From a virus (lineage: Duplodnaviria > Caudoviricetes), in IMG/VR virus record IMGVR_UViG_3300017766_003652, positions 25,012 to 89,011 of that record: a DNA stretch of 64,000 nt; one strand, given 5' to 3'. A program made the translations under genes and the position numbers. Below, one piece after another: positions 2,921-40,675 of the stretch (the stretch's first letter is position 1; each line of letters begins with the position of its first letter). The notes beneath the pieces were generated by a model. That model saw nothing but the letters and a program-made list of their open reading frames with translations, was not told the origin of the DNA and did not search any database.

Positions 2921-3144
2921 AGACCGGACCGTTACCCGATAATTTCAAACCCCCAGGCCTAAAGCCGGGGCAACGCCTGCTGGAGTACCAGCTCGTGACC
3001 AGCTACGAGCCATCAGAGCTTGAGCGCACCGTGAACAGCCTGTTACGCCAGGGGTTCAACCTCAAAGGTCGCCTCAAGCTGGTTGTCGTTCCCGGGCACA
3101 GACCCCTCTACCTCCGGGAAATGACGAGAGGGGTCGAGGTCTAA
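2917..3144 (+). CDS. DUF1737-like small protein
   Basis: YQLVTS...LERTVNSLLRQGFNLKG pattern; ATGA overlap. Confidence 0.5.
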   Translation: MKTGPLPDNFKPPGLKPGQRLLEYQLVTSYEPSELERTVNSLLRQGFNLKGRLKLVVVPGHRPLYLREMTRGVEV

Positions 3145-3146
3145 TT

Positions 3147-3404
3147 ATGGAACAGCCACTGCAATACCTTCACCGTCTACTGTCCGAGCTGGAGGAGATG
3201 ATGCCCCCAGACCCAGGCAAACATCACACGATCACCCGGGCCATCGGCGGTTCCGGGCGAGATCAGGGGGATATCCTCATGGTCAGCCTCTCCACCCGGG
3301 GCACCTGGGTCCACCTCCCCTTGGATCAGGACCGCTGCGCCTGTCTGAGCGCCGAGACGCTTTCCTGCGCCTTGGTCCACCGTGCGGGGTCCGGGAATGG
3401 CTAA
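3147..3404 (+). CDS. Hypothetical protein
   Basis: Tandem ORF, GAGG upstream. Confidence 0.55.
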   Translation: MEQPLQYLHRLLSELEEMMPPDPGKHHTITRAIGGSGRDQGDILMVSLSTRGTWVHLPLDQDRCACLSAETLSCALVHRAGSGNG

Positions 3405-3597
3405 CGGGGTCCTGACCAGCAAGGAGGTTTCCCAGCAAACCGCCCTGTACTCCGCAATCAAGGAACTCCAGAACGCAATCGAGATGGGGAGCCAGGGTCG
3501 AGTCCCTCCCCCTCGACTACTCGACCGGTGGCGGGGCGTTTTAGCCCATTGCCAGGATACAGCCGGGGTCCAGCCCCATCTGAGAAAGAAGGTCTGA
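3397..3597 (+). CDS. Hypothetical protein
   Basis: MANGVLT start, overlaps neighbours at both ends. Confidence 0.5.
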   Translation: MANGVLTSKEVSQQTALYSAIKELQNAIEMGSQGRVPPPRLLDRWRGVLAHCQDTAGVQPHLRKKV

Positions 3598-3935
3598 TGA
3601 TGAAGCCGCTTTGCCTAATCCTCCTGCTCCTCCCTTTGGTACTGGGGCAAACCAAGGTTAAGCCGGAACAGGTCCGGAACTGGACCCAATTGAAGCACGC
3701 GGGAGGGGGAGGTACACAGCTCTCCATCCGGCAACTACAGCTCGGCAGTCCTTATGCCACCGCAAGCTGGGAAGCGGTGGCTACCCGGTCCACCTATCCA
3801 GCCCAGTACAGAGTAGCCATTGTGCCCACCCAGCGGCTGCCCATCCTAATCACCTGCTACGAAAGAACCTCCGAGTGTAACGCCAGGGCCTCCCGGGTCT
3901 ACCCTCTGTGGTTCAATCAGCCCAACACCTTCTAG
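3597..3935 (+). CDS. Predicted secreted protein (Sec signal peptide)
   Basis: MMKPLCLILLLLPLVLG-QTKVKPEQVR; TGATG overlap. Confidence 0.65.
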   Translation: MMKPLCLILLLLPLVLGQTKVKPEQVRNWTQLKHAGGGGTQLSIRQLQLGSPYATASWEAVATRSTYPAQYRVAIVPTQRLPILITCYERTSECNARASRVYPLWFNQPNTF

Positions 3936-17178: not shown

Positions 17179-17212
17179 GGCGCCAGGGGTCCTCACTCTG
17201 GCGCCTCTTTTT
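17179..17212 (+). terminator. Intrinsic terminator
   Basis: GGCGCCAG...CTGGCGCC plus TCTTTTT. Confidence 0.65.
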
Positions 17213-17258
17213 ATGGGGAGTTGCCCGGAGGCTTGGAACCGGGGTATAGATTAAGGGC

Positions 17259-18008
17259 ATGGCCAAACCGAAGCCGATTAACACGAAGTCCCGCCGCCAA
17301 AGTAGCGCCAGGGCTCCGGGACCCAGGGTGTCAGCCACCCGTAATATGAAGGGGAAACCTCCCTCGGCCAAGCGCAAACCTCCTAAGCCTGGAGCCGCCA
17401 ACCTGATGACCGCGGAAGCCCTCATCTCCTCCCAGCTAAAGGGCGTAGACGAGTTCGCATCCTTGGTTCAACCCTACTTCCTCAAGATCAGCGATGTGGT
17501 CCGAGGGGTAACCCTCCCCATGCAACCGAGTGACGACATCATCCGGGCTATCGGGCACTTGGTCCGGCTAGGCAACTTCCCGGAGGTGGCGGCTCGGGCC
17601 TTGGGAGTACGCACCCATCTGTTCCGGGAGTGGGTAGCCTTGGGACTCAAGGACCCCCACAGCTCCTACGGTCGGCTCGTTGCAGCGATTGATATCGCCG
17701 ATGCGCAGGACGAGATCTCCGATGTCCAGCTCATCACCATCGGCGTTAAGCACTGGAGCGCGCTCGCCTGGAAACGTGAGCGCAAAACGGCACGGCGCTG
17801 GAAACCCAAGTTCGAGCACACGATCATTGGAACAGATGACTATGGTGGCGGAGGTACTCCAAAGTATGAGCACGTGCCGGATGCCAACACCGCCGAGTCA
17901 ATCCTTCAAACTTTACAAGACCTGGGAGTACTACACAATGTCATGCCATTACCCACCAAGGACTCAGAAGCCCCTGTGGCTGAGGATGAAGATGAGGGTG
18001 CCGGCTAG
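17259..18008 (+). CDS. terS: Probable terminase small subunit
   Basis: HTH-like AARALGV...FREW, then helical domain with WSALAWKRER motif typical of small-terminase-like proteins; upstream of TerL. Confidence 0.55.
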   Translation: MAKPKPINTKSRRQSSARAPGPRVSATRNMKGKPPSAKRKPPKPGAANLMTAEALISSQLKGVDEFASLVQPYFLKISDVVRGVTLPMQPSDDIIRAIGHLVRLGNFPEVAARALGVRTHLFREWVALGLKDPHSSYGRLVAAIDIADAQDEISDVQLITIGVKHWSALAWKRERKTARRWKPKFEHTIIGTDDYGGGGTPKYEHVPDANTAESILQTLQDLGVLHNVMPLPTKDSEAPVAEDEDEGAG

Positions 18009-19046: not shown

Positions 19047-19925
19047 ATGCAACCCACAAGCGTCCCGGTACTCCCGCCGCTACCAAGCTCCGCCACCTAC
19101 GGACCGGAGCAACTCCAGATCTTCACCCGCTTCAATCGGGGCACCTACATGGCCAAGTTCGGCCAGCAAGCCCCGCCTTGGGACAAATCCAAGCCGATCA
19201 AACGCTGGTTCCATACCGGCGCCGCTTCGACGGAGAACTACCTCTACTTCAACGACAGCGCAAAGCAACTCCAGGTCATGACGATGTCCGCCGAGGAAGC
19301 GGCATCGATCAACCTGCCGGGGTCCTATGACTACCCCGCCTACGTTATCGCCCCGACCCCGGCCACCATCATTTCCATGGGCTCCCGGTATCCGGTCCGC
19401 GCCGATGTCCTCAGCGCCGAGGAGGATGCCAGGGGCCTGGCGGATATCCTCCAGCGGTTTCTCGGTCCGGTCCCGGCGATACAGGTGCGGGAGAGCGACT
19501 CCTTTACCGGGGTCAACCTCGCGGTGGACTGGGGCGCCGAGACCCGGCGAGCCTGGACCGTTGTGATCGGGAGCCAGGCTTACTCCGTGGGCCTCCTCCT
19601 CCGCACCCGCAACCTGAACGGGGTCGGGGCTCCCGGAGTCTGGAATGTCAAAGTGGGCCTCGCCCCGACCTGGGCCCCGGCCAGCCCTGGCGAGACCGGG
19701 GAACAGGATATCCGCCCGGAGGTTCCGATTCCCTGCCGTGCCCTCCAGCAGAACGAGTCCATCCGCCCGCATCCCCTGGGTCCGGTCTATATCTACCGCA
19801 ACGACATGCCGAATCCGTTTGAGACCGCGACCGGAGCCGGCGGCGGCTTCTCGGATAGCGACCGCAACACCCTCACCACGATCCTGAATAACACTCAGGT
19901 CATTCTCGCCAATACCGCCCAGTAA
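19047..19925 (+). CDS. Hypothetical protein (292 aa)
   Basis: AAAGGA upstream; strongly C-ending codons; terminator follows. Confidence 0.7.
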   Translation: MQPTSVPVLPPLPSSATYGPEQLQIFTRFNRGTYMAKFGQQAPPWDKSKPIKRWFHTGAASTENYLYFNDSAKQLQVMTMSAEEAASINLPGSYDYPAYVIAPTPATIISMGSRYPVRADVLSAEEDARGLADILQRFLGPVPAIQVRESDSFTGVNLAVDWGAETRRAWTVVIGSQAYSVGLLLRTRNLNGVGAPGVWNVKVGLAPTWAPASPGETGEQDIRPEVPIPCRALQQNESIRPHPLGPVYIYRNDMPNPFETATGAGGGFSDSDRNTLTTILNNTQVILANTAQ

Positions 19926-20388: not shown

Positions 20389-20691
20389 ATGGCTATAGAA
20401 GGACTCACTCAAGCAGAAGTCAAGGTACTGGCAGAAACCTCAAACTTCCCCACCGGGATTCTTGGGACTGAAAGCCTGTTCCCAGCGAACCGCCCGTACT
20501 TGTCCCGCCTAACGGATATCCTGAAGGATGTCCCTGATGCGGTACTCAACGCAAATTTCAAAGATCAAAGTGCCCGGGAAGAACTCTTTCGGCGGCACTT
20601 GAATAACAGACTCGGTCAGATGGTCCGCTTTATGACCTATGAGCGGCGTAAGAAAGCAAAGGAGCTTAACAATGGACGCGACAAGCGATAA
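20389..20691 (+). CDS. Hypothetical protein, probably leaderless
   Basis: TACAAT(20377)-N6-ATG. Confidence 0.6.
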   Translation: MAIEGLTQAEVKVLAETSNFPTGILGTESLFPANRPYLSRLTDILKDVPDAVLNANFKDQSAREELFRRHLNNRLGQMVRFMTYERRKKAKELNNGRDKR

Positions 20692-21514
20692 CGTGCTGGC
20701 GATGCCGGCCCCGGTACCTCCCGGAGATGAGGAGGGCGGTTCCCTTCTGGAGCTGGCTGATGGCAAGACCTATCGGCTGGTCTTCGATGGGGTGGCCATC
20801 ATGGCCCTTGACGATCTCATGGGGATCAACTTCATCGAGGGCAAGTTCATCCCCAATAACGCCACCCGTTTGCGGGCCCTGCTCTGGGCGTGCACCCGGG
20901 CCCATCACCCGGAACTTACCCTGGAGGATGTCGGGGATCTGGTCCTGGCTGCCAATATGACCGGGGTCATGGCTGCCGTTTATCAGCTTCTCTCCGGGAA
21001 CGCCAAGAAGGACCCCGATAGCCTGGCGCCGTTTGTCCCCTCCCATCTGGAGGTGGTTGAGAAAGCCCTGGCTCTCTCCGGGCTCCGGGAGGGTCAGCGG
21101 TTCGCCGACCTGGGCTGCGGAGATGGTCGGGTCCTCGCAAAGGCCTTTGCCATTACCAAGACCCATGTCCTTGGGTACGAGTACGATGCTGGCCGGGCCA
21201 AGCAGAGCCGGGACCTGCTGGAGCTGATGAAGATCGATGGCCGGATCGTGGAGGATAAGATTCAGAACGCCGACCTCCTCGGTATCGACGTCGTGTTTGT
21301 CTACCTCCTGACCGAGAGCAACGCCCGGTTGAAGGCGAAACTCCTCCAGTTCCTCAAGCCGGGGGCCAAGGTAGTCAGCCATGACTTTCCGATGCCCGGC
21401 TGGACGAGCCAGGTAGAGGAGCGGTTCGTGATCGCGGACGGCGACAACCCGGAAGCCGGGATCAGCCACTCGGTCTTCGTTTACGAGATCGGGGAAGGGA
21501 CCCCGGCAGAATGA
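20672..21514 (+). CDS. Tail-assembly-chaperone-like domain fused to class I SAM-dependent methyltransferase (FAM173/aKMT-like)
   Basis: N-terminal LRALLWAC...HPELTLEDVG; C-terminal PFVPS, DLGCGDGRV, GYEYD, DVVFVYLL, LKPGAKVVSHDFPMPGW; GGAG upstream of ATG 20672. Confidence 0.8.
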   Translation: MDATSDNVLAMPAPVPPGDEEGGSLLELADGKTYRLVFDGVAIMALDDLMGINFIEGKFIPNNATRLRALLWACTRAHHPELTLEDVGDLVLAANMTGVMAAVYQLLSGNAKKDPDSLAPFVPSHLEVVEKALALSGLREGQRFADLGCGDGRVLAKAFAITKTHVLGYEYDAGRAKQSRDLLELMKIDGRIVEDKIQNADLLGIDVVFVYLLTESNARLKAKLLQFLKPGAKVVSHDFPMPGWTSQVEERFVIADGDNPEAGISHSVFVYEIGEGTPAE

Positions 21515-21684
21515 GCATCCACATCGAGATAGGCGTTCACCTGGCGATCACCGTGGGGGTGGTCGCTCTCCTAGCCTTTGTAGGGCTAGCGGCATGGGCC
21601 AACCGCAAGCCGGAGATCACAACCAAGAACTTCAACTGCCAGATTCACAAGACCCAGGAGGAGCCGCCCCATGAAGCAGCCTAG
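21511..21684 (+). CDS. Small membrane protein (57 aa)
   Basis: LAITVGVVALLAFVGLAAWA helix; ATGA overlap. Confidence 0.55.
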   Translation: MSIHIEIGVHLAITVGVVALLAFVGLAAWANRKPEITTKNFNCQIHKTQEEPPHEAA

Positions 21685-22021
21685 CCAGCCGGCCCTCGAA
21701 GGTCTCCCTCCCGAACTGCTCATCCGTGGCAGCCGGGAGGGGGAGCCCCTGGAGACTCCGGAACTTTGTCGGCGGGTCTCGGTGCGGATCGTGGCCCCGC
21801 TCCTCCTGGAGATCTTCAAACGCAACGTGAACGACCCTGCCATCTGGGCTCGGGTCGTGACCCCGGATATCCCCGCGGATGCCAAGGTGGTGGGGGTTAG
21901 CCTTGATCCCTATGCCGGCTCTGATGTCTTCATCATGATTCTGGAGTCCGCCTCTTTTGCCCCTGTACCTTGGGGGCAGCAGTGTCCGGAACTCCTGATA
22001 ACCTTTCATCAGCTACCCTAA
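21671..22021 (+). CDS. Hypothetical protein
   Basis: AGGAGG upstream; TAATG overlap. Confidence 0.6.
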   Translation: MKQPSQPALEGLPPELLIRGSREGEPLETPELCRRVSVRIVAPLLLEIFKRNVNDPAIWARVVTPDIPADAKVVGVSLDPYAGSDVFIMILESASFAPVPWGQQCPELLITFHQLP

Positions 22022-22497
22022 TGGCCAAAGCAACAGAGATCGTCGAGGTCCGTTTCATCGGGGTGGTCTATCTGTACCTGAAGGGAACCCTGTTCTTTCC
22101 TATCAAGGTCAGGAGCGAGGTCGAACGCAAGTTTGTCCGTAGCCTCTGGCGAGATAAGGCAAAGGGCAGGACCACCCGGTTTGTCCAGTTCGAACACCCG
22201 CTACTGGCCTCCAGTATGTTCCTTTTGAAGATCCGGTTCTCCGTCGACGAAGAGCCGGTTCAACGGATGTTTGTGGATACCGAAACCACTACCGAGGTCC
22301 TCTGCTGTCTCTGGGAGGCTCAGAACCACAAGCATGTTGCCCAATATCAGATTCCATCCACTTACTTCATGGGAACCCCGGTACCGGAAGCCCCTCACAA
22401 GTTAAGCTGGGGTGAGATCCTAACTGTAGCCAGGCTCAGGGAACGCTTAAAGGTGGAGGACTCCTTCCCCAAAAAGAAAGGCTGGGTCCCCTTCTAA
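22021..22497 (+). CDS. Hypothetical protein
   Basis: MAKATEIV start coupled to upstream stop. Confidence 0.55.
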   Translation: MAKATEIVEVRFIGVVYLYLKGTLFFPIKVRSEVERKFVRSLWRDKAKGRTTRFVQFEHPLLASSMFLLKIRFSVDEEPVQRMFVDTETTTEVLCCLWEAQNHKHVAQYQIPSTYFMGTPVPEAPHKLSWGEILTVARLRERLKVEDSFPKKKGWVPF

Positions 22498-22522
22498 CGC
22501 GCCCTATATAATCGAGCCGAGG

Positions 22523-22560
22523 AAAGGCAACCCCCTGACCGGGAGTTGCCTTTTCCTTTT
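22523..22560 (+). terminator. Intrinsic terminator
   Basis: AAAGGCAAC...GTTGCCTTT plus TCCTTTT. Confidence 0.75.
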
Positions 22561-22637
22561 GGGTGGGTTAGGCTTGGAATCGGTTAGTGTGATCGCGGCG
22601 GTGCCGGCGTAAGGATCTTCAATCTAGGGAGAAGTCT

Positions 22638-23951
22638 TTGCTAGACACCGCTACAGGCTGGCGGGCTGTCATCAACAGCCACCCGGAGCTTCTCAGGAAG
22701 CTCACGCCCCGCTTCAACAAGTACATTCCCATACGCCCCAATGCGAAGCAATGGGTCGCCCTCCTACTTAACAACGTCCCGGAAGTTTTCTATGGTGGCG
22801 CTGCCGGAGGGGGCAAGACTGACTGGCTCCTCGCCGAGGCCCTCCAGTATGTTGACGTCGAGAACTATGCGGCGCTCATCCTCCGCAGAACCTACAGCCA
22901 GCTGGATATGCAGGACTCCATCCTACATAGAGCCCACCTATGGCTCCGCAACACTGAGGCGATCTGGCAACCCAAGCAGTACAGGTACCTATTCCCCTCG
23001 ACCGGGGCCACTGTTACCTTTGGCTATCTGGAGAATGAGGCTGACAAGTACCGATATGACGGCCCAGCGTTCCAGTGCGTTTGCTATGATGAGCTAACCC
23101 ACTTTAAGGAGTCACAGTACACCTTTCTGGCCAGCCGCCTCCGCAAACCTCCGGGGATGCCCGTTCCCCTCCGCCTCCGATCCGCTAGCAACCCGGGAAA
23201 CTTGGGGCATGGGTGGGTGAAGGATCGGTTCGTTAAGAGCAACTCAGCCGACCGCATCTTTGTACCGGCCAAGCTGGAGGATAACGCCGAGCACGTTGAT
23301 ATCGCCTCATACGAACGCTCCTTTGCGATCCTTGATCCGATCACCCGCAAACAGCGGCGGGAAGGGGACTGGGATGCGGATATCGAAGGGGCTTACTTCA
23401 AACGCAGTTGGTTCACACAGTTCGTAGATGCCGAGCCCGCCAAACTACATGCGGCCCGCGCATGGGATCTGGCAGCGACCCAGGGAGCGGGCGACTTTAC
23501 CTCCGGGGCCAAAGTAGGGACCGACCCGGACAAACTATGGTATGTCTGCGATATCAAGTCCGGGCAGTACTCCTCCCTCACTGTACGCCGGTTAATCCGG
23601 CACGTAGCGGAGACTGATGGAAAGATACCTATCATTCTGGAGCAGGAACCTGGGTCTGCCGGAAAGACCGTTGCTGAGGACTACATCCGGCAGCTGGCCG
23701 GTTGGCGAGTTGAGGCAATTCCCTCGACCAAGAAGAAGTACATCCGGTGGCAGCCCTTTATCTCTCAGTGTGAGGCGGGCAACGTAGTCATCGTGAACGG
23801 GGCCTGGAACGTCTCTTTCTTTCAACAGCTGTTCTCTGTACCCTTCTCCGCCCATGATGACGATGTCGACTCGGTGACCTCGGCGTTCAATTGGTTGGCA
23901 AAGAATCCCTCTGGCAGATTCGGTATTAGTTTCCTAGGAGGTCGGCGATGA
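22638..23951 (+). CDS. terL: Terminase large subunit
   Basis: Walker A YGGAAGGGKT, Walker B CYDELTHF, ASNPG coupling motif, nuclease AWDLAAT...HDDDVDS. Confidence 0.95.
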   Translation: MLDTATGWRAVINSHPELLRKLTPRFNKYIPIRPNAKQWVALLLNNVPEVFYGGAAGGGKTDWLLAEALQYVDVENYAALILRRTYSQLDMQDSILHRAHLWLRNTEAIWQPKQYRYLFPSTGATVTFGYLENEADKYRYDGPAFQCVCYDELTHFKESQYTFLASRLRKPPGMPVPLRLRSASNPGNLGHGWVKDRFVKSNSADRIFVPAKLEDNAEHVDIASYERSFAILDPITRKQRREGDWDADIEGAYFKRSWFTQFVDAEPAKLHAARAWDLAATQGAGDFTSGAKVGTDPDKLWYVCDIKSGQYSSLTVRRLIRHVAETDGKIPIILEQEPGSAGKTVAEDYIRQLAGWRVEAIPSTKKKYIRWQPFISQCEAGNVVIVNGAWNVSFFQQLFSVPFSAHDDDVDSVTSAFNWLAKNPSGRFGISFLGGRR

Positions 23952-24604
23952 AGCGCATCAAGATCAGCCCTGCGCAAGATAAGCGGGAGGGAACCTCCAC
24001 CGTACCGGCTTCCCGGGTCCAGGTTAGCCGCCTCAAGATCAAGCCCCACGGGCACGCGGAAGTGGAAATCTATCCGCTGGTTCTACGCCTGGTCAAGCGG
24101 TGCTATAAGGGCATCGCCGAGGATGGCCGGCTAGAGTATCAAGACCTTATCAGTGAAGGGGTCCTCGCCGTACTGGAATGCCTACGCCGGTACAAACCGC
24201 CCAAGGGTAAGGCAAAGCCTACCAAGTTCTCGACCTTTGCGTTCTTCCGGATAGTCGGAGCCCTCAAGGATGTCGTCAAGAAGCAGGACAAGTTTGGGGT
24301 ACGGATACAGCTCGTGGGCGGGGATGAGTTTGACCAGCAGGTAGCCCGCCCCAGTTTCCTGGAAATGGATGTCTCGAACCGGGAACTCTTCCTGAAGGTT
24401 ATCCAGATCATAGAGAAGAAACTCCCGCCGACTCTGGCGGTCGTGCTTATCCGGTCCTACCTGGAGGAGTGGCCGGATCGAACCATAGCCAAGGAGCTGG
24501 GGGTTACCTTGGTTCAACTTGAAATACTCCGGCAAAAAGCTCTGGAGGGGGTACGCCACCAGCTCCCTGTATCCCGGAAGCAGTTTGGAACCTGGGTCGG
24601 ATGA
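23948..24604 (+). CDS. Sigma-70 family RNA polymerase sigma factor, FliA/WhiG-like
   Basis: Region 2 QDLISEG...KFSTFAFFRIVGALKD; region 4 HTH LPP...TIAKELGVT...ALEGVR. Confidence 0.85.
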   Translation: MKRIKISPAQDKREGTSTVPASRVQVSRLKIKPHGHAEVEIYPLVLRLVKRCYKGIAEDGRLEYQDLISEGVLAVLECLRRYKPPKGKAKPTKFSTFAFFRIVGALKDVVKKQDKFGVRIQLVGGDEFDQQVARPSFLEMDVSNRELFLKVIQIIEKKLPPTLAVVLIRSYLEEWPDRTIAKELGVTLVQLEILRQKALEGVRHQLPVSRKQFGTWVG

Positions 24605-26814: not shown

Positions 26815-28680
26815 ATGTTCTACCGTTTCGACAAACTAGATCCCAGAACCCGCAACTGGCTCCGTACCCTTTACCGGGGCATGGAGCCTCACCAATTAAC
26901 GGACCTTGTATGCACGGAAGAGGTCACCCGTGTGTTTCAACTCAAGTCCATAGAGACTCGGCGCCAGAACTGGGAGAGGGCCTGGGAACCCAAGCTCGGG
27001 TCCCTCCTCCAGAAAGTCGGGCGGGAAGTGGCTCTGGACTACAGAGGGGCTCAGAGCGCGGAGCATGCCGTTACGGTTATGCGGCGGGAACTGGAAGTCC
27101 CTTTGCACAGATCCCTGGTGGCTCTGTACTCTGATGTCCAGACCGAGTTCATCCGTATAGTCCCGGTAAGCCTGGCCGGCAAGAACTTCCAGCCGGTACA
27201 GTACGTGAAGCAGGATGACCCTTTCGATATCGATCCAGCAAACTGGCAGGAGCAGAACCCCTTGGATCTGCCCAAGATGCAAAAGTATAACCGGCTGACC
27301 ATCGGAGCCCACGTTTCAAAGATCCTGGAGAGCACGACCATCTGGATTAAAGAAATGGTCAGCGATGCCCTGGAGAATGGCTGGAGCGTTGACCGTACCG
27401 CCCAGAAGCTCACAGAGCTCTATGGGTTCTCGTTCAAGCGAGCTCGGCTCATCGCACAGACCGAGGTGGTTGGAGCCAGTAACGCGGCTACCTACTTCTC
27501 CATGGACAAGAACGTCCCGACCGCCACCATGATAAAGGACTGGATCAACGCGGGAGACCATAGGGTTCGCGACTCCCACATAGATGCAGGACTATCCCAG
27601 CGAGGCATCCCCTTCAGCGATCCCTTCGAGGTCGGAGGCAGCCAGCTGATGTTTCCGGGAGACGCCTCCCTTGGGGCCTCAGGCCGGGAAATCATTGGGT
27701 GCCGCTGTACCGCCCTCTACCAGACTCCCGGATCTCGCCGGTCTCGGATCTACCAAGGGCTGCAGGAGAACAATGACCGGGCAAACGTAGGAGGTAAACG
27801 CCCGCAACCGGCACCAAAGCCGGCACCAAAGCCGGCACCTAAACCGAAACCGAGTCCCAAACCGAAACCCAAGCCGGCACCGATGCCCCCGCCCAAGCCA
27901 GCACCTCCACCTCCACCTCCAAAGCCGGCTCCTACTCCTCCACCTCCTCCAGCCCCTAAGCCGCCCCCTCCACCTCCACCTCCTCCTCCTCCACCTACCT
28001 GGCCTAAGCCAGCCCCTAAACCGGCACCAAAGCCGGCTCCTACACCAAAGCCAGCTCCAAAGCCAGCTCCTACACCTCCGCCCCCTCCACCGCAACCCTC
28101 CGCGGCCCCGCCCGCCTCGGCTTTCTCCAGGGATCGCTCCAAGGTATTCCCTACCTTCAATGAGGCAAAAGAGTATTTGACAACGCAGGGGGTTAACTGG
28201 TGGAACAGATTGTACGAGGAAGAGAAGACTGCGACCATGAAGTATACCGGGCACGCCTATAAAAGAATCAATACAGCTCTGCGGGGTGGGAGTGTACTGT
28301 CCCCAGAAGGTAAACGAACCGTGGCTGATATTGATTCCGCTATCCGCAAGGGCGTGCTCCAGGATCAGCTCCTCGTCTACCGCGGTATCGAGAACGGGGC
28401 AAACCTCGCAGAGCTGAAACATCTCCAGGTCGGGGGCTACTATACCCCCTCTGCCTATATCTCTACCTCCATTCGATCAGAGGCTGCCTTTGGCGGGGAC
28501 ACCTTCATGAAGATCCACCTCCCAAAGGGTTCCAGGGTCGGACTGATAGACGGCAACTCCTATAATCCCCAAGAGCTGGAACTCCTCCTCCCTCGCGGGG
28601 CTAGGTTGAAACTGATTAGCACCAACACCGGGCACCGAGGGAGCAAGCCCGTTCGCATCCTGGAGTTTGTGCTTGAATAG
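26815..28680 (+). CDS. Head morphogenesis protein (MuF/SPP1 gp7-like) fused to VIP2-like ADP-ribosyltransferase
   Basis: RARLIAQTEV, KDWINAGDHRVRDSH, GCRC; C-terminal YTGHAYKRIN, VYRG, YISTS, QELELLLPRG. Confidence 0.9.
   Translation: MFYRFDKLDPRTRNWLRTLYRGMEPHQLTDLVCTEEVTRVFQLKSIETRRQNWERAWEPKLGSLLQKVGREVALDYRGAQSAEHAVTVMRRELEVPLHRSLVALYSDVQTEFIRIVPVSLAGKNFQPVQYVKQDDPFDIDPANWQEQNPLDLPKMQKYNRLTIGAHVSKILESTTIWIKEMVSDALENGWSVDRTAQKLTELYGFSFKRARLIAQTEVVGASNAATYFSMDKNVPTATMIKDWINAGDHRVRDSHIDAGLSQRGIPFSDPFEVGGSQLMFPGDASLGASGREIIGCRCTALYQTPGSRRSRIYQGLQENNDRANVGGKRPQPAPKPAPKPAPKPKPSPKPKPKPAPMPPPKPAPPPPPPKPAPTPPPPPAPKPPPPPPPPPPPPTWPKPAPKPAPKPAPTPKPAPKPAPTPPPPPPQPSAAPPASAFSRDRSKVFPTFNEAKEYLTTQGVNWWNRLYEEEKTATMKYTGHAYKRINTALRGGSVLSPEGKRTVADIDSAIRKGVLQDQLLVYRGIENGANLAELKHLQVGGYYTPSAYISTSIRSEAAFGGDTFMKIHLPKGSRVGLIDGNSYNPQELELLLPRGARLKLISTNTGHRGSKPVRILEFVLE
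27802..28116 (+). repeat. Pro/Lys/Ala low-complexity linker (PAPKPAPK and poly-Pro)
   Basis: ccggcaccaaag-type and cctcca-type repeats, about 105 codons. Confidence 0.9.
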
Positions 28681-34623: not shown

Positions 34624-34980
34624 ATGGCACGAACAGCACTCACTGTCACCACGGCTCCGGGCGCCTACCCTACGGCCGGCGTGGCCTTGACCTGGGATTC
34701 AGCGGATGCCTCGAACGGGAATGACTTCGTCTTTACCGGGCGGGAACTGATTCTGGTGCGGAATGCCCATGCGTCCACGGCAAAGACCGTTACGCTTACC
34801 TCTGCCGCTGATCCGCAGGGGCGTAGCGGCGACATCACAGCGGAATCGCTGGCGGCCGGGGTGGTCCGTTGCTTTGGTCCCTTCCGGAACAAGACCGGCT
34901 GGAATCAATCCGGGGGCAAGTTTCACTTGACCGCCGAGGATAACAACATCAAATTCGCCGTGATCCGGCTGCCCAAGTAA
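34624..34980 (+). CDS. Structural protein, paralog A
   Basis: TTAPGAYPTAGV...DITAESLAAG...GPF. Confidence 0.75.
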   Translation: MARTALTVTTAPGAYPTAGVALTWDSADASNGNDFVFTGRELILVRNAHASTAKTVTLTSAADPQGRSGDITAESLAAGVVRCFGPFRNKTGWNQSGGKFHLTAEDNNIKFAVIRLPK

Positions 34981-35003: not shown

Positions 35004-35354
35004 ATGCCTCGTGTACTCATTACCAAGACAACCGCGCCGGGCTCGTACCCCACCGCTGGCGTTACCGTATCGTTCCAGGATGCGGCCCCGGCCAGCGACG
35101 AGCACTTCATCATGGAGGGGAACGACCTCCTGATTGCCCGCAACACCCACGCAACGGACCCGTTCACGGTCACCATCACTTCGCAGCCCAGTTCCCGCAA
35201 CCGCTCCCGCGACATTACCGCGGAATCCTTGGCGGCGGGAGCGTACAAGATCTATGGTCCCTTCACTGACCGGGATGGCTGGTCTGCGGACGGCTACCTC
35301 CAGTGCGAGGCCTCCGATGCCTCCATCGAATTTGCCGTTATCAAAACGGCGTAA
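35004..35354 (+). CDS. Structural protein, paralog B
   Basis: TTAPGSYPTAGV...DITAESLAAG...GPF. Confidence 0.75.
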   Translation: MPRVLITKTTAPGSYPTAGVTVSFQDAAPASDEHFIMEGNDLLIARNTHATDPFTVTITSQPSSRNRSRDITAESLAAGAYKIYGPFTDRDGWSADGYLQCEASDASIEFAVIKTA

Positions 35355-35420: not shown

Positions 35421-35855
35421 ATGAGCAGCGTAGCAATCAGCGCCTTTGGAACACTCGTTCAGATCGGGGATGGTGGCACGCCCGAAGCGTTTACCACTAT
35501 CGCCGAGTTGCGGACGATCTCCGGCCCCTCTCTGACCGCGGATGTGATCGATGTCACCGTACACAATACGGCGACTCCGTTCCGCCGCTTCATTAGCGGC
35601 TTGATCGATGGCGGCGAGATCCAGATTGACATCAACTTCGTTCCCCAGGAAACGACCCACAGCTACAGCACGGGCCTTCTGGCGGATATGTTGAACCGCA
35701 CCCGCCGCAACTTCGCCCTCGTGTTCCCGGACTCGGGCACGACCACCTGGATTATCCCCGGCATCATCACCAGCTTCGAGTGCTCCTCGGACCCGGCTGA
35801 TGTTTTGATGGCCTCGGTGACGATCAAGGTTTCCGGCCCGCCGACCTTCGAGTAG
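35421..35855 (+). CDS. Major tail tube protein
   Basis: IAELRTISGPSLTADVIDVT, GLIDGGE, ASVTIKVSGPP. Confidence 0.9.
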   Translation: MSSVAISAFGTLVQIGDGGTPEAFTTIAELRTISGPSLTADVIDVTVHNTATPFRRFISGLIDGGEIQIDINFVPQETTHSYSTGLLADMLNRTRRNFALVFPDSGTTTWIIPGIITSFECSSDPADVLMASVTIKVSGPPTFE

Positions 35856-35975: not shown

Positions 35976-36341
35976 ATGCGACTCGAGAACATTCTTCAAC
36001 AGACTACCCCGGTTCGGCTCGACAAGCCTCGCCGGATGCTCATCACCCTGAACTCCCTGGCTGAGGTGGAAACCACAACCGGGCGTTCGATCCTCATCCC
36101 CGGCGACCTCGGTAAGCCGTCCGCCAAGATCCTGTTCACCATGATTGCCGCGTTCTGTCGGCATGAGGACCCGGAGGTTACGGTCGCTCAGATCGCCCGC
36201 GGGTTCAACATGCAGCGGATGCCGGAGCTCATGAAGGCTATCACCGGGGCCTGGGAAAAGAACGCGGCCGGTACTCCTGCCGCCAAGGCGGACCCCACCG
36301 GAAATTTTCCTCCGGCGGCTCTGGAAGCGGTGTCCGCCTAA
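35976..36341 (+). CDS. Tail assembly chaperone (gpG-like)
   Basis: Between tube and tape measure genes; RHEDPEVTV; slippery site near the end. Confidence 0.85.
   Translation: MRLENILQQTTPVRLDKPRRMLITLNSLAEVETTTGRSILIPGDLGKPSAKILFTMIAAFCRHEDPEVTVAQIARGFNMQRMPELMKAITGAWEKNAAGTPAAKADPTGNFPPAALEAVSA
36302..36308 (+). promoter_or_regulatory. Programmed -1 frameshift heptamer A AAT TTT
   Basis: In phase with chaperone frame (GGA AAT TTT); -1 frame open to 36730. Confidence 0.85.
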
Positions 36342-36730
36342 ACTGGTACGAGCTGTGGGCCCTGGCTCGCTATGATCTGGGGCTAACCGACACAGAGTTC
36401 TGGCAACTAACCCCGAAGCAGTTATTCGCTTTGATCGACCGCAAAAAAGCGGCGGATAAAGCGGAGGACTACCGCTTCGGGGTTATTGCGTCCACGCTTT
36501 GTAACCTCCAGCGGAATCCCAAGAAGCAAAAGAAGGCCTTCGAACCGAGTGACTTCTTTCTCAGCCTCAAGGATAAAGATGCCGCGGATAAGAAACAGAC
36601 GTGGAAGCAGCACCTCGCCATCGCGACCCAGCTCCATGCCCTGTTCAAGGGCGTAGGCAAACCAAAGCCGCAGGAAGATACAACGCCGCAAGTAGTAGAA
36701 GCCCCCAAACAGAAACGGTCCAGAAAGTAA
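36308..36730 (+). CDS. Frameshifted gpT-like extension of tail chaperone
   Basis: -1 frame reads ...ARYDLGLTDTEFWQLTPKQL...FEPSDFF. Confidence 0.8.
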   Translation, partial: SSGGSGSGVRLNWYELWALARYDLGLTDTEFWQLTPKQLFALIDRKKAADKAEDYRFGVIASTLCNLQRNPKKQKKAFEPSDFFLSLKDKDAADKKQTWKQHLAIATQLHALFKGVGKPKPQEDTTPQVVEAPKQKRSRK

Positions 36731-36742
36731 GCCGGAGGCAGC

Positions 36743-39700
36743 ATGGCAGAGATAGATGTCGGTCGAATGTTCATCAGGCTCGGACTCGAGCTCGAAGAGT
36801 TCTCAAACGGTCTGCAACAGGTTGAGCAGGAGTTAGAGAAACGGGCGATGGCCTTTGGGAAGCTGGGCATCGGACTCTCCGCTGCTCTCACTGCTCCTCT
36901 CGCGGGCCTCGCCTCTGAGGGGTTGTCTACCCTGGCTAGCTTTGAGAAGGAGATGAACAAGGTCTCCGCGGTCGGTGGCATCTTTGGGGAGGATCTAAAG
37001 AAGCTGACCGCTCAGGCCATGATGCTTGGTGATACCACGGTATACAGTTCCAAGCAGGCCGCAGCGGCCATGGGAGAACTCGCCGCCGCTGGCTTCAAAT
37101 CCAACGAAGTCTACTCTGCCATGCCCGGCGTTCTATCCCTGGCCGCTGTCGAGGGAATGAAGATCGGGGATGCCGCCAAGATCGCCGCGGCTGCGATCAA
37201 TCAATTCGGGTTCGAGGCCAAGGATATGGGCATGATTGCCGATACAATGGCAGCCACCTCCTCCGCCTCGGCCACCTCAGTACAGGCCCTCGGAAATTCG
37301 TTCCAGTATATTGGCTCCGTATCCCGCACCACCAATCAGAGTTTCAAGGATATCTCTGCCGCGTTGGGCGCCCTCGCTCAGGCCGGCCGTACCGGAGAGT
37401 CAGCCGGTACCGCCCTGCGTTCCATGCTTATGTCCCTGCAGGACCCGAGCAAGCGAGGTACTGCCGCCCTCAAGGCCCTCAAGGAATCAGTGTATGAAGC
37501 CAATGGGCAGCTGAAGCCCATGGGGGAACTCATCCGTATCCTTCAGCCTCTGATGGACGATGCCCAGAAAGGCATCGCTATCTTTGGTAAGCGGTGGAGC
37601 GACGTCTCCGCCCTCCTCCAGGATGGGGGCAAGAACTTCTACGCGATTTCAAAGGGCCTGGAGGATGTCACCGGGTCCTCTAAGAAAGCCGCGGATATCA
37701 TGCAGCAGGGGCTCGCTGGAGCCTTTGAGAAACTGACCAGCTCTTTGGAAGGGGTTAACCTCCGCATCGGTAAGATCCTGGCCCCGATCGCCATGGAACT
37801 GATGAAGATGGCCACCGCCGTATCCGATGCGGTCAGCAAGTCTCTGGACGAGTTTGTCAAGCTCGACCCCATGATTCAGAATGCCGTACTTGGGTTCGCC
37901 GCCCTCCTGGCAGCCCTGGGTCCGGTATCCCTGGCGATCGCTGGATTCTACGCAGCCCTGGCTACCCTGGCAACCACTCTCCCGGCCGTCACCGCTATGT
38001 TCGGAGCCGGAGGAGCCGGGCTGGCCGCTATGGCTACGGCAGGGACCGCGGTCGGTGTAGCTCTTGCCGGGTGGGAGCTGTACAAGATCTACAAAGACCT
38101 GGTGGAACTCAAGGATAGCGTCCAGGCTCTCACCTCTGAATTCGTTAACTGGAGCAAGTCGCTGGAGATTGCGACCATTATCGCGGAGGGCCTCTGGAAG
38201 ATCCTTCTTGAGCTACCTCCTGGCTTTGTGCCGTTCATCTCCATCCTGAAAGTCGCTGGGATGGAGACCGGCGGGTTCGTGAACTTCATCCGCACTTTGT
38301 ATGAGGGGTTGAAGAAGCTGGCCTCGGATATCGGCAACCCGGTCGGGGCCATCGTGAAGACCCTCCTCCAGCTATCCGAGTCCATGCGCAAGGCCTTTGG
38401 GGATGGAGGAGCCGAGAACGCCAAGGCCATGGCGGATGGCGCAAACAGCGTCATGCGCAACATGATGATGAACTCGGAAACCGTGGCCAAAGGCCTGGAG
38501 GCCATGACCATCCGGGTTAAGGAGGTCATCAAGAAAGAGAAGGCCAACGTCGACGACCGGGGCAAACTGCTTGACGAGGAGGACAAGCAAACCAAGAAGA
38601 AAAAGAAGATAGTCGACGAGGAGATGGTGACTATTAAGGCCGCTCTTGCCTCTAAGGAGGCTATGGCCAAGGTCGATGCAGCCATCATTGACTTCCAGGT
38701 CCGTGCCCACAAGCAACTATCTACTGATGTGCACGATGCCCTACGCAAGGTCATTCTGGACTGGGAAGCCCTCCATGCCATGATTGGGGACACCTCGGCC
38801 TGGAAGAAACTGACCCCGGTCATGGAAGAGGTTATGAAGGGGATTGCCAAGCCCCTGGAGGATGCAGTCGCTCATACCAAGGCTTTGGATGACGCATTCA
38901 AGAACCTTGGGGTAAAGTCGGTTGAATCCCTCCGGGCTGTCCGGGATCAGGCGATTGAATCCCAACGGGCCATTCAAGCGGCCATGGATACCGGCGAGAT
39001 CGAAACCTCACAGGCTGTTATCCTCGCAGGACAGGAGCGGATACTCAAGGCAGAGAAAGACCTGGCCATCGCCATGGGCCAGAACTTCGAGGTCTATGAT
39101 GAGCAGCTGAAGAACGTAGGGGAAACCCTCGACCAGATGTCGGGCAAGCCCACCAAGATGGCTCTGGAGTTTGAGGCCTTTGGCAAGGCGATCGGGGAAG
39201 CGTTCGGCAACCTCTCGGATAATCTGTTCGACGCTATCGTCTCTGGTGAGGGGTTCAAGAAAGCGTTCGATGGGTTCATCGATGACTTGAGTGCCTCCAT
39301 CCGCACCTTCGCCAAGAACATCCTGAAGGGCGTTCTCCAGGATGCAATCAAAGGCAACATCACCTCGATGAATGACTTGGGCAAATCAGCTACCAAGGCG
39401 TTCAAGGATGTCCAGAAGGTATTCACAGGAGATGTTCCGGGGTCAGGCGCCACCGGAGGAGGTGGGGGTCTGGGAGATTCTGCCAAGACCTCCCAGATGG
39501 CTGCCGGTGGGCTGACTGGTTGGATCACCGCGATTAGCTCCGCGGTCTCCGCGGTTGCTGACATCCTGATGTACTTGCAGGGTCGCCGGATGGAAAAGGA
39601 CATCGGGCGCATGGAGGTTACCACCCGGGAGATCAAAGCCGAGATTCAGAACCTGCGAGCTGATGAGTGGACCCGGGAAAAGCACCTCTTCAACCTGGAC

Positions 39701-40675
39701 CGGATGGCGGACGCTACAGACCGTTTCGGGGATGCCCATGGCGCCTACCTATCCGACATGCTGGGTCACCTCCAGGAGATCGTCCTCCTGCTTCAGAGCG
39801 GGGCCTTTAACGGCGGCGGTAGCGGGATTAGCCCGACCTGGATTGACTTCGGAGGTTCTGGTGGAGGCTCCGCGGTTGAGCGGCTGCAAGAGCTTGCCGA
39901 TCAGACCCACATGGCAAACTACTATCTGAAAGAGATGGAGGCCCAGGCCCAGGTCTCCGGCAGTAGCCTCTCTGACCTCTCTTACGCCACCGATACGGCT
40001 ACCGTGGAGCTGGCCGAGGTTTCCGAGACCGTAGCCGAAACCAACAAAGAGCTGAAGGCCGGGACTAAAGAGTACGAGGAATGGAAGAACAAGCTCAAGG
40101 ATACGCAAGACTATGACCGCTGGTATCAAGCCCGGCTAGATGCGGAGAAGCGGGCCCTCCGGTCGACCGACCGCTGGGGGAACGTCCTGGATGAAGCCGG
40201 CAATACCATCCTGCTCAGCATGGATTTCATCAACTCCAGCCGAGAGCAGGCCAAGGCCACGGATATGAAGTTCTCCGGGGCCATTGGTTACGCCGCCGAC
40301 CAGATCGTCTTTGGATCAGAGGCAGCCGCAGCAGCCCTACGCAAAACGGCGGAAGCGGCTAACAGCGCCTCCTCCGGGTTCGCCTCCTACTCCAGGACCC
40401 TCCTGTCCGACATAAACGATACTGCGAACACCCTCGGTTCCCAGGTGGGTTCGGTAGGAGGGGGCTCTCCCGCTGGATCGAATCCCGGAGGCTCTGCCCG
40501 TTCGAATGCCATCTGGTATAACGGCCGCTGGGTCGATCCGAAGACCTACCTCCCGGTGGATATGGGGAGCGGTGCGGGAGGCCTCAACCTAAACGTCACG
40601 GTAAACAACGCCGATGCGGGAAAGGTAGCCAACACTATGATGTCTACCTGGAGAGCTGGCGGCGTGAACATCTAA
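36743..40675 (+). CDS. Tape measure protein (TP901 family)
   Basis: 1310 aa, helical; FEKEMNKVSAV...QAAAAMGELAAAGF core. Confidence 0.95.
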   Translation: MAEIDVGRMFIRLGLELEEFSNGLQQVEQELEKRAMAFGKLGIGLSAALTAPLAGLASEGLSTLASFEKEMNKVSAVGGIFGEDLKKLTAQAMMLGDTTVYSSKQAAAAMGELAAAGFKSNEVYSAMPGVLSLAAVEGMKIGDAAKIAAAAINQFGFEAKDMGMIADTMAATSSASATSVQALGNSFQYIGSVSRTTNQSFKDISAALGALAQAGRTGESAGTALRSMLMSLQDPSKRGTAALKALKESVYEANGQLKPMGELIRILQPLMDDAQKGIAIFGKRWSDVSALLQDGGKNFYAISKGLEDVTGSSKKAADIMQQGLAGAFEKLTSSLEGVNLRIGKILAPIAMELMKMATAVSDAVSKSLDEFVKLDPMIQNAVLGFAALLAALGPVSLAIAGFYAALATLATTLPAVTAMFGAGGAGLAAMATAGTAVGVALAGWELYKIYKDLVELKDSVQALTSEFVNWSKSLEIATIIAEGLWKILLELPPGFVPFISILKVAGMETGGFVNFIRTLYEGLKKLASDIGNPVGAIVKTLLQLSESMRKAFGDGGAENAKAMADGANSVMRNMMMNSETVAKGLEAMTIRVKEVIKKEKANVDDRGKLLDEEDKQTKKKKKIVDEEMVTIKAALASKEAMAKVDAAIIDFQVRAHKQLSTDVHDALRKVILDWEALHAMIGDTSAWKKLTPVMEEVMKGIAKPLEDAVAHTKALDDAFKNLGVKSVESLRAVRDQAIESQRAIQAAMDTGEIETSQAVILAGQERILKAEKDLAIAMGQNFEVYDEQLKNVGETLDQMSGKPTKMALEFEAFGKAIGEAFGNLSDNLFDAIVSGEGFKKAFDGFIDDLSASIRTFAKNILKGVLQDAIKGNITSMNDLGKSATKAFKDVQKVFTGDVPGSGATGGGGGLGDSAKTSQMAAGGLTGWITAISSAVSAVADILMYLQGRRMEKDIGRMEVTTREIKAEIQNLRADEWTREKHLFNLDRMADATDRFGDAHGAYLSDMLGHLQEIVLLLQSGAFNGGGSGISPTWIDFGGSGGGSAVERLQELADQTHMANYYLKEMEAQAQVSGSSLSDLSYATDTATVELAEVSETVAETNKELKAGTKEYEEWKNKLKDTQDYDRWYQARLDAEKRALRSTDRWGNVLDEAGNTILLSMDFINSSREQAKATDMKFSGAIGYAADQIVFGSEAAAAALRKTAEAANSASSGFASYSRTLLSDINDTANTLGSQVGSVGGGSPAGSNPGGSARSNAIWYNGRWVDPKTYLPVDMGSGAGGLNLNVTVNNADAGKVANTMMSTWRAGGVNI

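Follow-up and report, generated by a model that had tools for sequence, protein, structure and literature searches.

A phage gene joining a tail assembly chaperone-like domain to a predicted aKMT-type methyltransferase

Introduction

The tape measure protein of lambda-type phages is coated by two forms of a tail assembly chaperone, G and GT (phrog_2115; PF11836, Phage_TAC_11; the RcGTA gp10 family), the second of which arises where G frameshifts into a tube-binding T domain. A very different family, the aKMT/FAM173 methyltransferases, is built on a small catalytic core, with an N-terminal appendage that sets the localisation of the enzyme and thereby its target (PMC9006661). Here we describe a phage gene that brings the two together, a chaperone-like domain being followed in the same frame by a predicted class I S-adenosyl methionine (SAM)-dependent methyltransferase. 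It lies in a window of 64,000 nucleotides from a virus of the Caudoviricetes (IMG/VR record IMGVR_UViG_3300017766_003652). The parent record, of 89,011 bp, is rated complete and has direct terminal repeats; the window comprises its bases 25012-89011, and all of its large genes are on the + strand.

Three further systems are relevant. In 2026 methylation of a mycobacteriophage tail protein, dependent on the host enzyme MepM, was reported to be essential for infectivity (PMC13445384). Ubiquitin-like conjugation of the Bil type targets tail proteins (10.1101/2023.09.04.556158), and mad2 of the MADS defence system has been tied genetically to N6-methyladenine (m6A) in DNA, as a predicted methyltransferase required for the marks (10.1101/2023.03.30.534895). 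Our literature searches yielded no paper on a chaperone-methyltransferase architecture, in agreement with the first-pass annotation of this DNA, which knew of no described example.

Results

Integrity of the fusion gene and its relatives

The open frame runs from 20639 to 21514 (+), and taking the ATG at 20672 as the start, with AAGGAG 7 nt before it, gives a protein of 280 amino acids. Its two domains, chaperone-like at the N-terminus and methyltransferase at the C-terminus, lie in one unbroken frame. No in-frame slippery heptamer of the form X_XXY_YYZ is found within the gene, so a single product is expected. Contigs of a strain that is ~98% identical are available from an independent wastewater study, and one of these covers 20651-22389 with zero indels in the fusion gene. 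Runs that bear the label RNA-Seq probably derive from DNA. The same architecture is seen in ~19 copies, made up of 15 cluster representatives together with L007, L008, L009 and L034. With the intact frame and the motifs that are kept, these observations confirm that this is a real two-domain gene and practically exclude a decayed gene or a chimera of assembly at the junction, the latter a danger to which the first-pass annotation had pointed.

The first search returned 10 proteins spanning 87-99% of the fusion at 34-58% identity. Throughout the 15 fused representatives DxGxGxG, E170, YLL..SN, F239 and W244 are invariant; LAPFVP(S/T), DLGCGDG, G-x-E, VYLLT.SN, SHDF and GW vary little or not at all, and the signature of the chaperone family, NA..E..TG, R..W and DP.LT.E.VG, is also kept. 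The hunt for further examples that had been proposed for this architecture was thus rewarded by the ~19 relatives; it drew a blank among 50,697 deposited phage genomes, where a tblastn search with the fusion protein gave no match. Fused forms of 491-2000 amino acids containing the methyltransferase part were not found at E <= 1e-8, which is weak evidence, and no split forms were seen at 18 viral loci (L010-L027), where no chaperone-family open reading frame (ORF) lies within 10 kb of the stand-alone aKMT-like gene. Three other candidates were rejected as fusions: P0020 and P0052 are tandem double methyltransferases and P0011 is a truncated gene call.

The N-terminal domain and the canonical chaperone

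Residues ~23-115 of the fusion match phrog_2115 ('tail protein') with an E-value of 1.1e-8 for the whole protein and 1.7e-9 for the isolated domain. The product of the gene at 35976, the true chaperone of this phage, matches the same profile at 4.2e-7. The kinship that the first-pass annotation had read by eye between these two proteins is real, if weak when they are compared directly (BLASTP E 0.1 only), and is carried by the shared profile, by tblastn of the 35976 protein onto the N-domains of the fused relatives (E 1e-7 to 1e-10) and by a hidden Markov model (HMM) of the family. An exhaustive phmmer search with the N-domain gave 136 proteins at E <= 1e-3, nearly all of them stand-alone, 100-145 amino acids long and matched from their N-terminus. 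In an alignment of 57 sequences, 55 of them phmmer matches and the other two the query domain and the G protein of the window, phrog_2115 is matched by every sequence and Pfam Phage_TAC_11 (PF11836) by 35; the N-domain of the fusion itself has no Pfam match. The family HMM, in which the query is one of the 57 rows, gives an E-value of 1.5e-32 for the fusion and 2.9e-21 for the true chaperone.

Stand-alone members of the family are found between the tube and tape measure genes in three phage genomes, that of the window included, and in all three there is an in-frame slippery heptamer near the 3' end and an open -1 frame of 140-166 codons. It is this combination of position, slippery site and open frame that marks the family as G-type chaperones. 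In the window the 35976 gene is flanked by the tail tube (Phage_TTP_12) and the 1310-residue tape measure, and the -1 frame is open for 140 amino acids after A_AAT_TTT, which bears out its earlier designation as a true chaperone that frameshifts into T. That the N-domain of the fusion and the G protein of this phage belong to one chaperone family is therefore supported at the level of sequence profiles, and the domain is alike in size and signature.

In a multiple alignment, the boundary between the two domains of the fusion coincides with the frameshift region of the true chaperone so that, as had been suggested, the fusion continues in frame where the chaperone would shift. It thus resembles G/GT in that a second module is attached where G would shift into T and, in the divergent relative L009, in having its gene between those for tube and tape measure. 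Unlike G/GT, it has neither a slippery site nor a frameshift, whereas the true chaperones of G000, G001 and G002 have one each; its C-terminal module would be an enzyme rather than a tube-binding T domain; and in the window it is ~15 kb from the tail genes of a phage that retains a separate canonical G/GT.

An AlphaFold2 (AF2) model of the N-domain, with a mean predicted local distance difference test score (pLDDT) of 84, consists of a beta hairpin and four helices. Foldseek of this model against the PDB gave nothing at E <= 0.001. With VIA-align against 48,161 chains the HK97 chaperone (2OB9) came first, with a suggestive but weak Z score of 4.7 that is below the level at which it would suffice alone, followed by YqbN (3KLU; Z 3.7), and the lactococcal p2 ORF12 was at rank 18 (Z 2.6). 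The fusion (isoelectric point, pI, 4.8) and its N-domain (pI 4.4) are acidic, as they are across the relatives (N-domains pI 4.3-5.3), a composition that suits a role in binding protein better than one in binding nucleic acid. The tree of chaperone domains has too little resolution to place the fusion event in time.

The C-terminal methyltransferase domain

In a phmmer search against the PDB, residues 119-275 of the fusion align with residues 7-159 of the 161 of Sulfolobus islandicus aKMT (5FA8), with an E-value of 8.6e-19 and 32% identity. Foldseek of the full-length AF2 model (pLDDT 86) finds 5FAD at E 3.8e-16, with a template modelling (TM) score of 0.88 on the target and a root mean square deviation of 1.9. 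Of the comparisons by Foldseek that had been advised for each half of the protein, that of the methyltransferase part was therefore successful and that of the chaperone-like part was not. The top NCBIfam model is the archaeal protein-lysine N-methyltransferase NF041081 (E 2e-18). The motifs quoted in the first-pass annotation, PFVPS, DLGCGDGR, VVFVYLL and LKPGAKVVSHDF, are all in the translation, and the full aKMT/FAM173 set is present: the pre-motif (A/V)P(F/Y)VP(T/S), DLGCGDG, the acidic post-I residue, (F/Y)LL..N and SH(D/E)F..GW. Motif IV of the DNA methylases, (D/N/S)PP(Y/F/W), is absent from the translation, as that annotation had noted for DPPY and NPPY, and the stretch after strand 4 reads VYLLTESN. 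From the sequence and the model, assignment of the domain as an aKMT/FAM173-type enzyme lacking the DNA-methylase motif IV is supported.

The core and the motifs are thus common to the fusion and to aKMT (5FA8, 5FAD, 5JWJ), FAM173B/ATPSc-KMT and FAM173A/ANT-KMT. As in the FAM173 proteins, an N-terminal appendage that may set the target precedes the pre-motif, but here it is a phage chaperone domain and not a membrane anchor, and the activity is a prediction from sequence. Two cellular stand-alone aKMT-like proteins from Bryobacteraceae, P0015 and P0029, have a hydrophobic signal- or anchor-like stretch before LAPFVP, paralleling the membrane anchor of FAM173. With P0065, another cellular stand-alone aKMT-like protein, they also match mad2 at E-values of 1e-21 to 1e-23. 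The aKMT-like core of mad2 includes the pre-motif region, which bears on what either family methylates. That core (model positions ~270-397) is what mad2 has in common with the fusion; mad2 differs in being a defence protein of ~490 residues with extra N- and C-terminal regions, tied to DNA m6A and without a chaperone domain. In a tree of methyltransferase domains, for which no rooting or donor is claimed, the fused copies cluster at one end, separate from the cellular proteins.

Co-occurrence with the canonical chaperone and the L009 locus

A canonical chaperone of the same family is kept in every genome open to checking. G000, G001 and G002 each have exactly two phrog_2115 matches, namely the fusion and a true G with its slippery site and -1 T frame.

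Along the 5.3-kb contig L009 come, in order, genes for an HK97-gp10-like protein, tail completion, a small tail protein, the tube and the fusion, then an ORF at 3074-3709 and the tape measure. By hhalign the first half of this ORF is a match to the chaperone profile (probability 96%, E 3.5e-9), and by BLASTP the second half is a match to the T extension of the window (2e-10). The G-like and T-like parts are read in a single frame that lacks a slippery heptamer, the ORF following immediately on the fusion gene, and no stand-alone G gene is visible on the contig. From the gene order and these matches, the fusion in L009 stands where the chaperone belongs in the tail module, beside a G-T chaperone. 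Together with the retention of a canonical chaperone, this position gives indirect support, by gene context, to a possible role in tail assembly.

Gene neighbourhood

In the window the fusion lies within a block of ten ORFs that separates terS from terL, which are 4.6 kb apart, and this layout is shared by most relatives (Table 1). A motif of 14 nt, AGGCTTGGAAYCGG, is repeated exactly at 17229 and 22570, after a hairpin and T run in each case, ahead of terS and terL. The repeat suggests that the unit containing the fusion may be co-regulated with the morphogenesis genes. The motif is a possible shared regulatory site, and the phage has a sigma-like factor of its own. A scan for sigma-70 promoters gave sites no more numerous than in shuffles. 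The sigma-70 region 2/4 gene is kept between terL and the portal gene in all relatives seen (contigs of P0002, P0145, L006 and L034).

In most relatives the fusion is preceded, at a distance of 1-4 genes, by a gene for a protein of ~300 residues. Its product is 34-39% identical to that of the window in L001, L004, L005, L006, L008 and L034 and 29% identical in L007; in the P0002 and P0145 contigs a gene of 295 or 297 codons is assigned to this slot from size and position only. The family is broader than that of the fusion (85 clusters), with 42 invariant columns among 5 members. The protein has no Pfam, PHROG, NCBIfam, PADLOC or PDB match, and its Atlas model, which is very poor (pLDDT 0.32), has no credible look-alikes. 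The gene is present without the fusion in L035, and the fusion is present with no ~300-residue gene detected in the P0136 context and in L009. Since each occurs without the other, the ~300-residue protein was rejected as an obligatory partner.

Elsewhere in the window, the MuF-like head protein carries an ADP-ribosyltransferase exoenzyme domain. A pair of paralogous genes for proteins of 116-118 amino acids (34624-34980 and 35004-35354) lies directly upstream of the tail tube, and the pair is also found in G001 and G002.

Table 1. Features of the window, in window coordinates.
Feature	Position	Strand	Evidence or remark
Terminator-like hairpin (17179-17205), then 14-nt motif AGGCTTGGAACCGG (17229-17242)	17179..17242	+	Ahead of terS
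terS (small terminase subunit)	17259..18008	+	phrog_4102 E 1.4e-7; first gene of the unit holding the fusion
Conserved protein of ~300 aa, no assigned function	19047..19925	+	Counterpart 1-4 genes before the fusion in the majority of relatives
Small basic ORF, 100 aa	20389..20691	+	Overlaps the start of the fusion by 20 nt; kept in two relatives
Shine-Dalgarno sequence AAGGAG	20660..20665	+	7 nt before ATG 20672; read from sequence
Fusion gene (chaperone-methyltransferase), 280 aa	20672..21514	+	Single frame; independent contig spans the gene
G-like chaperone domain, residues ~23-117	20738..21022	+	phrog_2115 E 1.7e-9
Predicted aKMT/FAM173-type class I SAM methyltransferase domain, residues 119-275, from pre-motif LAPFVPS	21026..21496	+	PDB 5FA8/5JWJ E 8.6e-19
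Hairpin and T run (by eye), then the same 14-nt motif AGGCTTGGAATCGG (22570-22583)	22522..22583	+	Ahead of terL
terL (large terminase subunit)	22638..23951	+	Terminase_6N/6C
Sigma-70-like gene, region 2/4	23948-24604	+	Profile match; between terL and portal
Portal	from 24631	+	Profile match
MuF and ADP-ribosyltransferase fusion	26815-28680	+	PF04233 and PF03496, E 6.5e-24
HK97-type capsid	from 29936	+	Profile match
Lambda-type tail tube, 144 aa	35421..35855	+	Phage_TTP_12 E 6e-10; 1 Lys
Canonical tail assembly chaperone G, 121 aa	35976..36341	+	phrog_2115 E 4.2e-7; flanked by tube and tape measure
Slippery heptamer A_AAT_TTT for the -1 frameshift of G/GT	36302..36308	+	In frame near the 3' end of G
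T-like extension in the -1 frame, 140 aa, 13.6% Lys	36308..36730	+	Matches the T part of the L009 G-T gene, BLASTP E 2e-10
Tape measure, 1310 aa, 94 Lys	36743..40675	+	Position and length; L009 counterpart matches Pfam TMP_3 E 2e-35

Discussion

The fusion would be a single protein in which a G-type chaperone domain and a motif-intact, SAM-dependent lysine methyltransferase of the predicted aKMT type are joined at the point where the chaperone would frameshift into T. Given that in FAM173-type enzymes the appendage sets the target, and that the N-domain here keeps the whole chaperone signature, the simplest and most likely reading is that the enzyme is placed on the tape measure complex. The N-domain would dock it on the client of G-type chaperones, the tape measure protein, either directly or through co-assembly with G, so that the fusion would form a third chaperone species beside G and GT on the tape measure-chaperone complex. 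Lysines on the tail-assembly components could then be methylated as the tail is built. There are 94 lysines in the 1310 residues of the tape measure and 19 in the 140 of the T extension; the tail tube has one in 144 and would, for this reason, be a poor bulk substrate. The candidate substrates would thus be the lysine-rich tape measure and T extension, the tape measure and the chaperones being likelier in bulk than the nearly lysine-free tube. Methylation might benefit the phage through stability, or through a block of proteolysis or of ubiquitin-like conjugation at lysines. The idea that the fusion targets the tail is plausible by analogy, and we give about an even chance to the proposal that the chaperone-like domain directs the methylation of lysines on the phage's own tail while it is being assembled. 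What we infer in this reading is that the N-domain binds the tape measure complex, that the substrate is protein lysine and that the phage gains by it. A fuller version would describe a group of siphophages with assembly-coupled lysine methylation, in which a 'G-KMT' joins G and GT on the tape measure and methylates it, and perhaps other tail components, before the tail is completed, thereby altering the stability of the ejected protein or blocking attack on its lysines by the host, whether by proteolysis or Bil-type conjugation. This we offer as a tentative and on balance rather improbable proposal.

Several observations weigh against targeting to the tail. In the window and in most relatives the fusion is ~15 kb from the tail genes, amid small ORFs with no assigned function; a position in the chaperone slot between tube and tape measure is seen only in L009, a divergent relative, while in the window the fusion is at 20672 and the tube at 35421. 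Identity between the fused N-domains and the cognate chaperone is only ~22%, and these N-domains stand apart from it in a poorly resolved tree, a divergence from which it follows that the client may have changed. The structural match of the N-domain to solved chaperones is weak by VIA-align and missing by Foldseek. As these phages are related, the co-occurrence of fusion and canonical G in G000, G001 and G002 amounts to about two independent lineages. On the side of the enzyme, NF041081 is matched with a score of 66.9 bits against a curated cut-off of 200, and the fusion, falling so far under it, is a relative rather than an equivalog of that family. Finally, the PADLOC mad2 model (PDLC04134) also matches the methyltransferase core, with an E-value of 4.3e-12 over model positions 269-397 of 492.

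The change of client that the divergence of the N-domain allows would be taken furthest if the domain had been re-used to hold a protein outside the tail, be it the ~300-residue neighbour, the basic protein of 100 residues or a host protein, which the enzyme would then methylate. The presence of the ~300-residue gene just upstream of the fusion in most contexts checked speaks for such a client, as does the 100-residue ORF, which overlaps the start of the fusion and is kept in two relatives. However, these phages share wide synteny, so the linkage to the ~300-residue gene may be a matter of inheritance rather than function; that family is the broader of the two, it persists in L035 where there is no fusion, and the P0136 context and L009 have the fusion with no such gene detected. 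In L009, moreover, the neighbours of the fusion are tail genes, and we consider a client outside the tail to be unlikely, if deserving of some weight. The same tail-module position in L009 also counts against a second possibility, that the N-domain serves only to oligomerise or stabilise a promiscuous aKMT-like lysine methyltransferase acting late in infection on many proteins of phage or host. G-type chaperones assemble in many copies, and that the best solved match of the N-domain model is the HK97 chaperone would fit oligomerisation; aKMT, too, is an enzyme of broad specificity (PMC9006661). Nevertheless, the full chaperone signature is conserved over ~19 diverged copies, which suggests that a specific interaction has been retained rather than a generic scaffold, and a purely oligomerising domain seems quite unlikely.

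The match to mad2 raises the question of whether the substrate is a nucleic acid, either phage DNA, modified at N6-adenine before packaging as a protection against restriction or MADS-like systems, or RNA. Because the mad2 model matches the core, a nucleic-acid substrate stays a candidate, though motif IV and a recognition domain are missing. Cellular members of the family match mad2 far better than the fusion does, mad2 is required for m6A marks, the structural relative 5BXY was deposited as an 'RNA methyltransferase', and the fusion gene lies between terS and terL. On the other hand, only 129 of the 492 model positions of mad2 are matched, the protein as a whole, and its N-domain more so, is acidic in a way that is unlike nucleic-acid enzymes, the top-scoring characterised relatives are protein-lysine enzymes, and a chaperone domain would be an odd partner for an enzyme acting on DNA. 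We regard a nucleic-acid substrate as very unlikely.

Post-translational modification of phage virions has barely been explored. If the fusion does act on the tail, it would share with MepM and its substrate, the mycobacteriophage protein Gp34, the theme of tail-protein methylation relevant to infectivity, which for the fusion is a proposal only. The MepM system differs in that the enzyme is encoded by the host, the site is the ELS motif of the minor tail protein Gp34 and there is no chaperone fusion (PMC13445384). Tail-protein methylation by the fusion would then be the first virus-encoded example, with the enzyme wired to a tail chaperone. The chaperone part points to where the substrate should be sought, and recombinant proteins with mass spectrometry would allow a direct test. 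Were the reading of an enzyme docked on the tail assembly complex to prove true, it would mean that the G/GT design, of a chaperone domain with a swappable C-terminal module, can deliver an enzyme.

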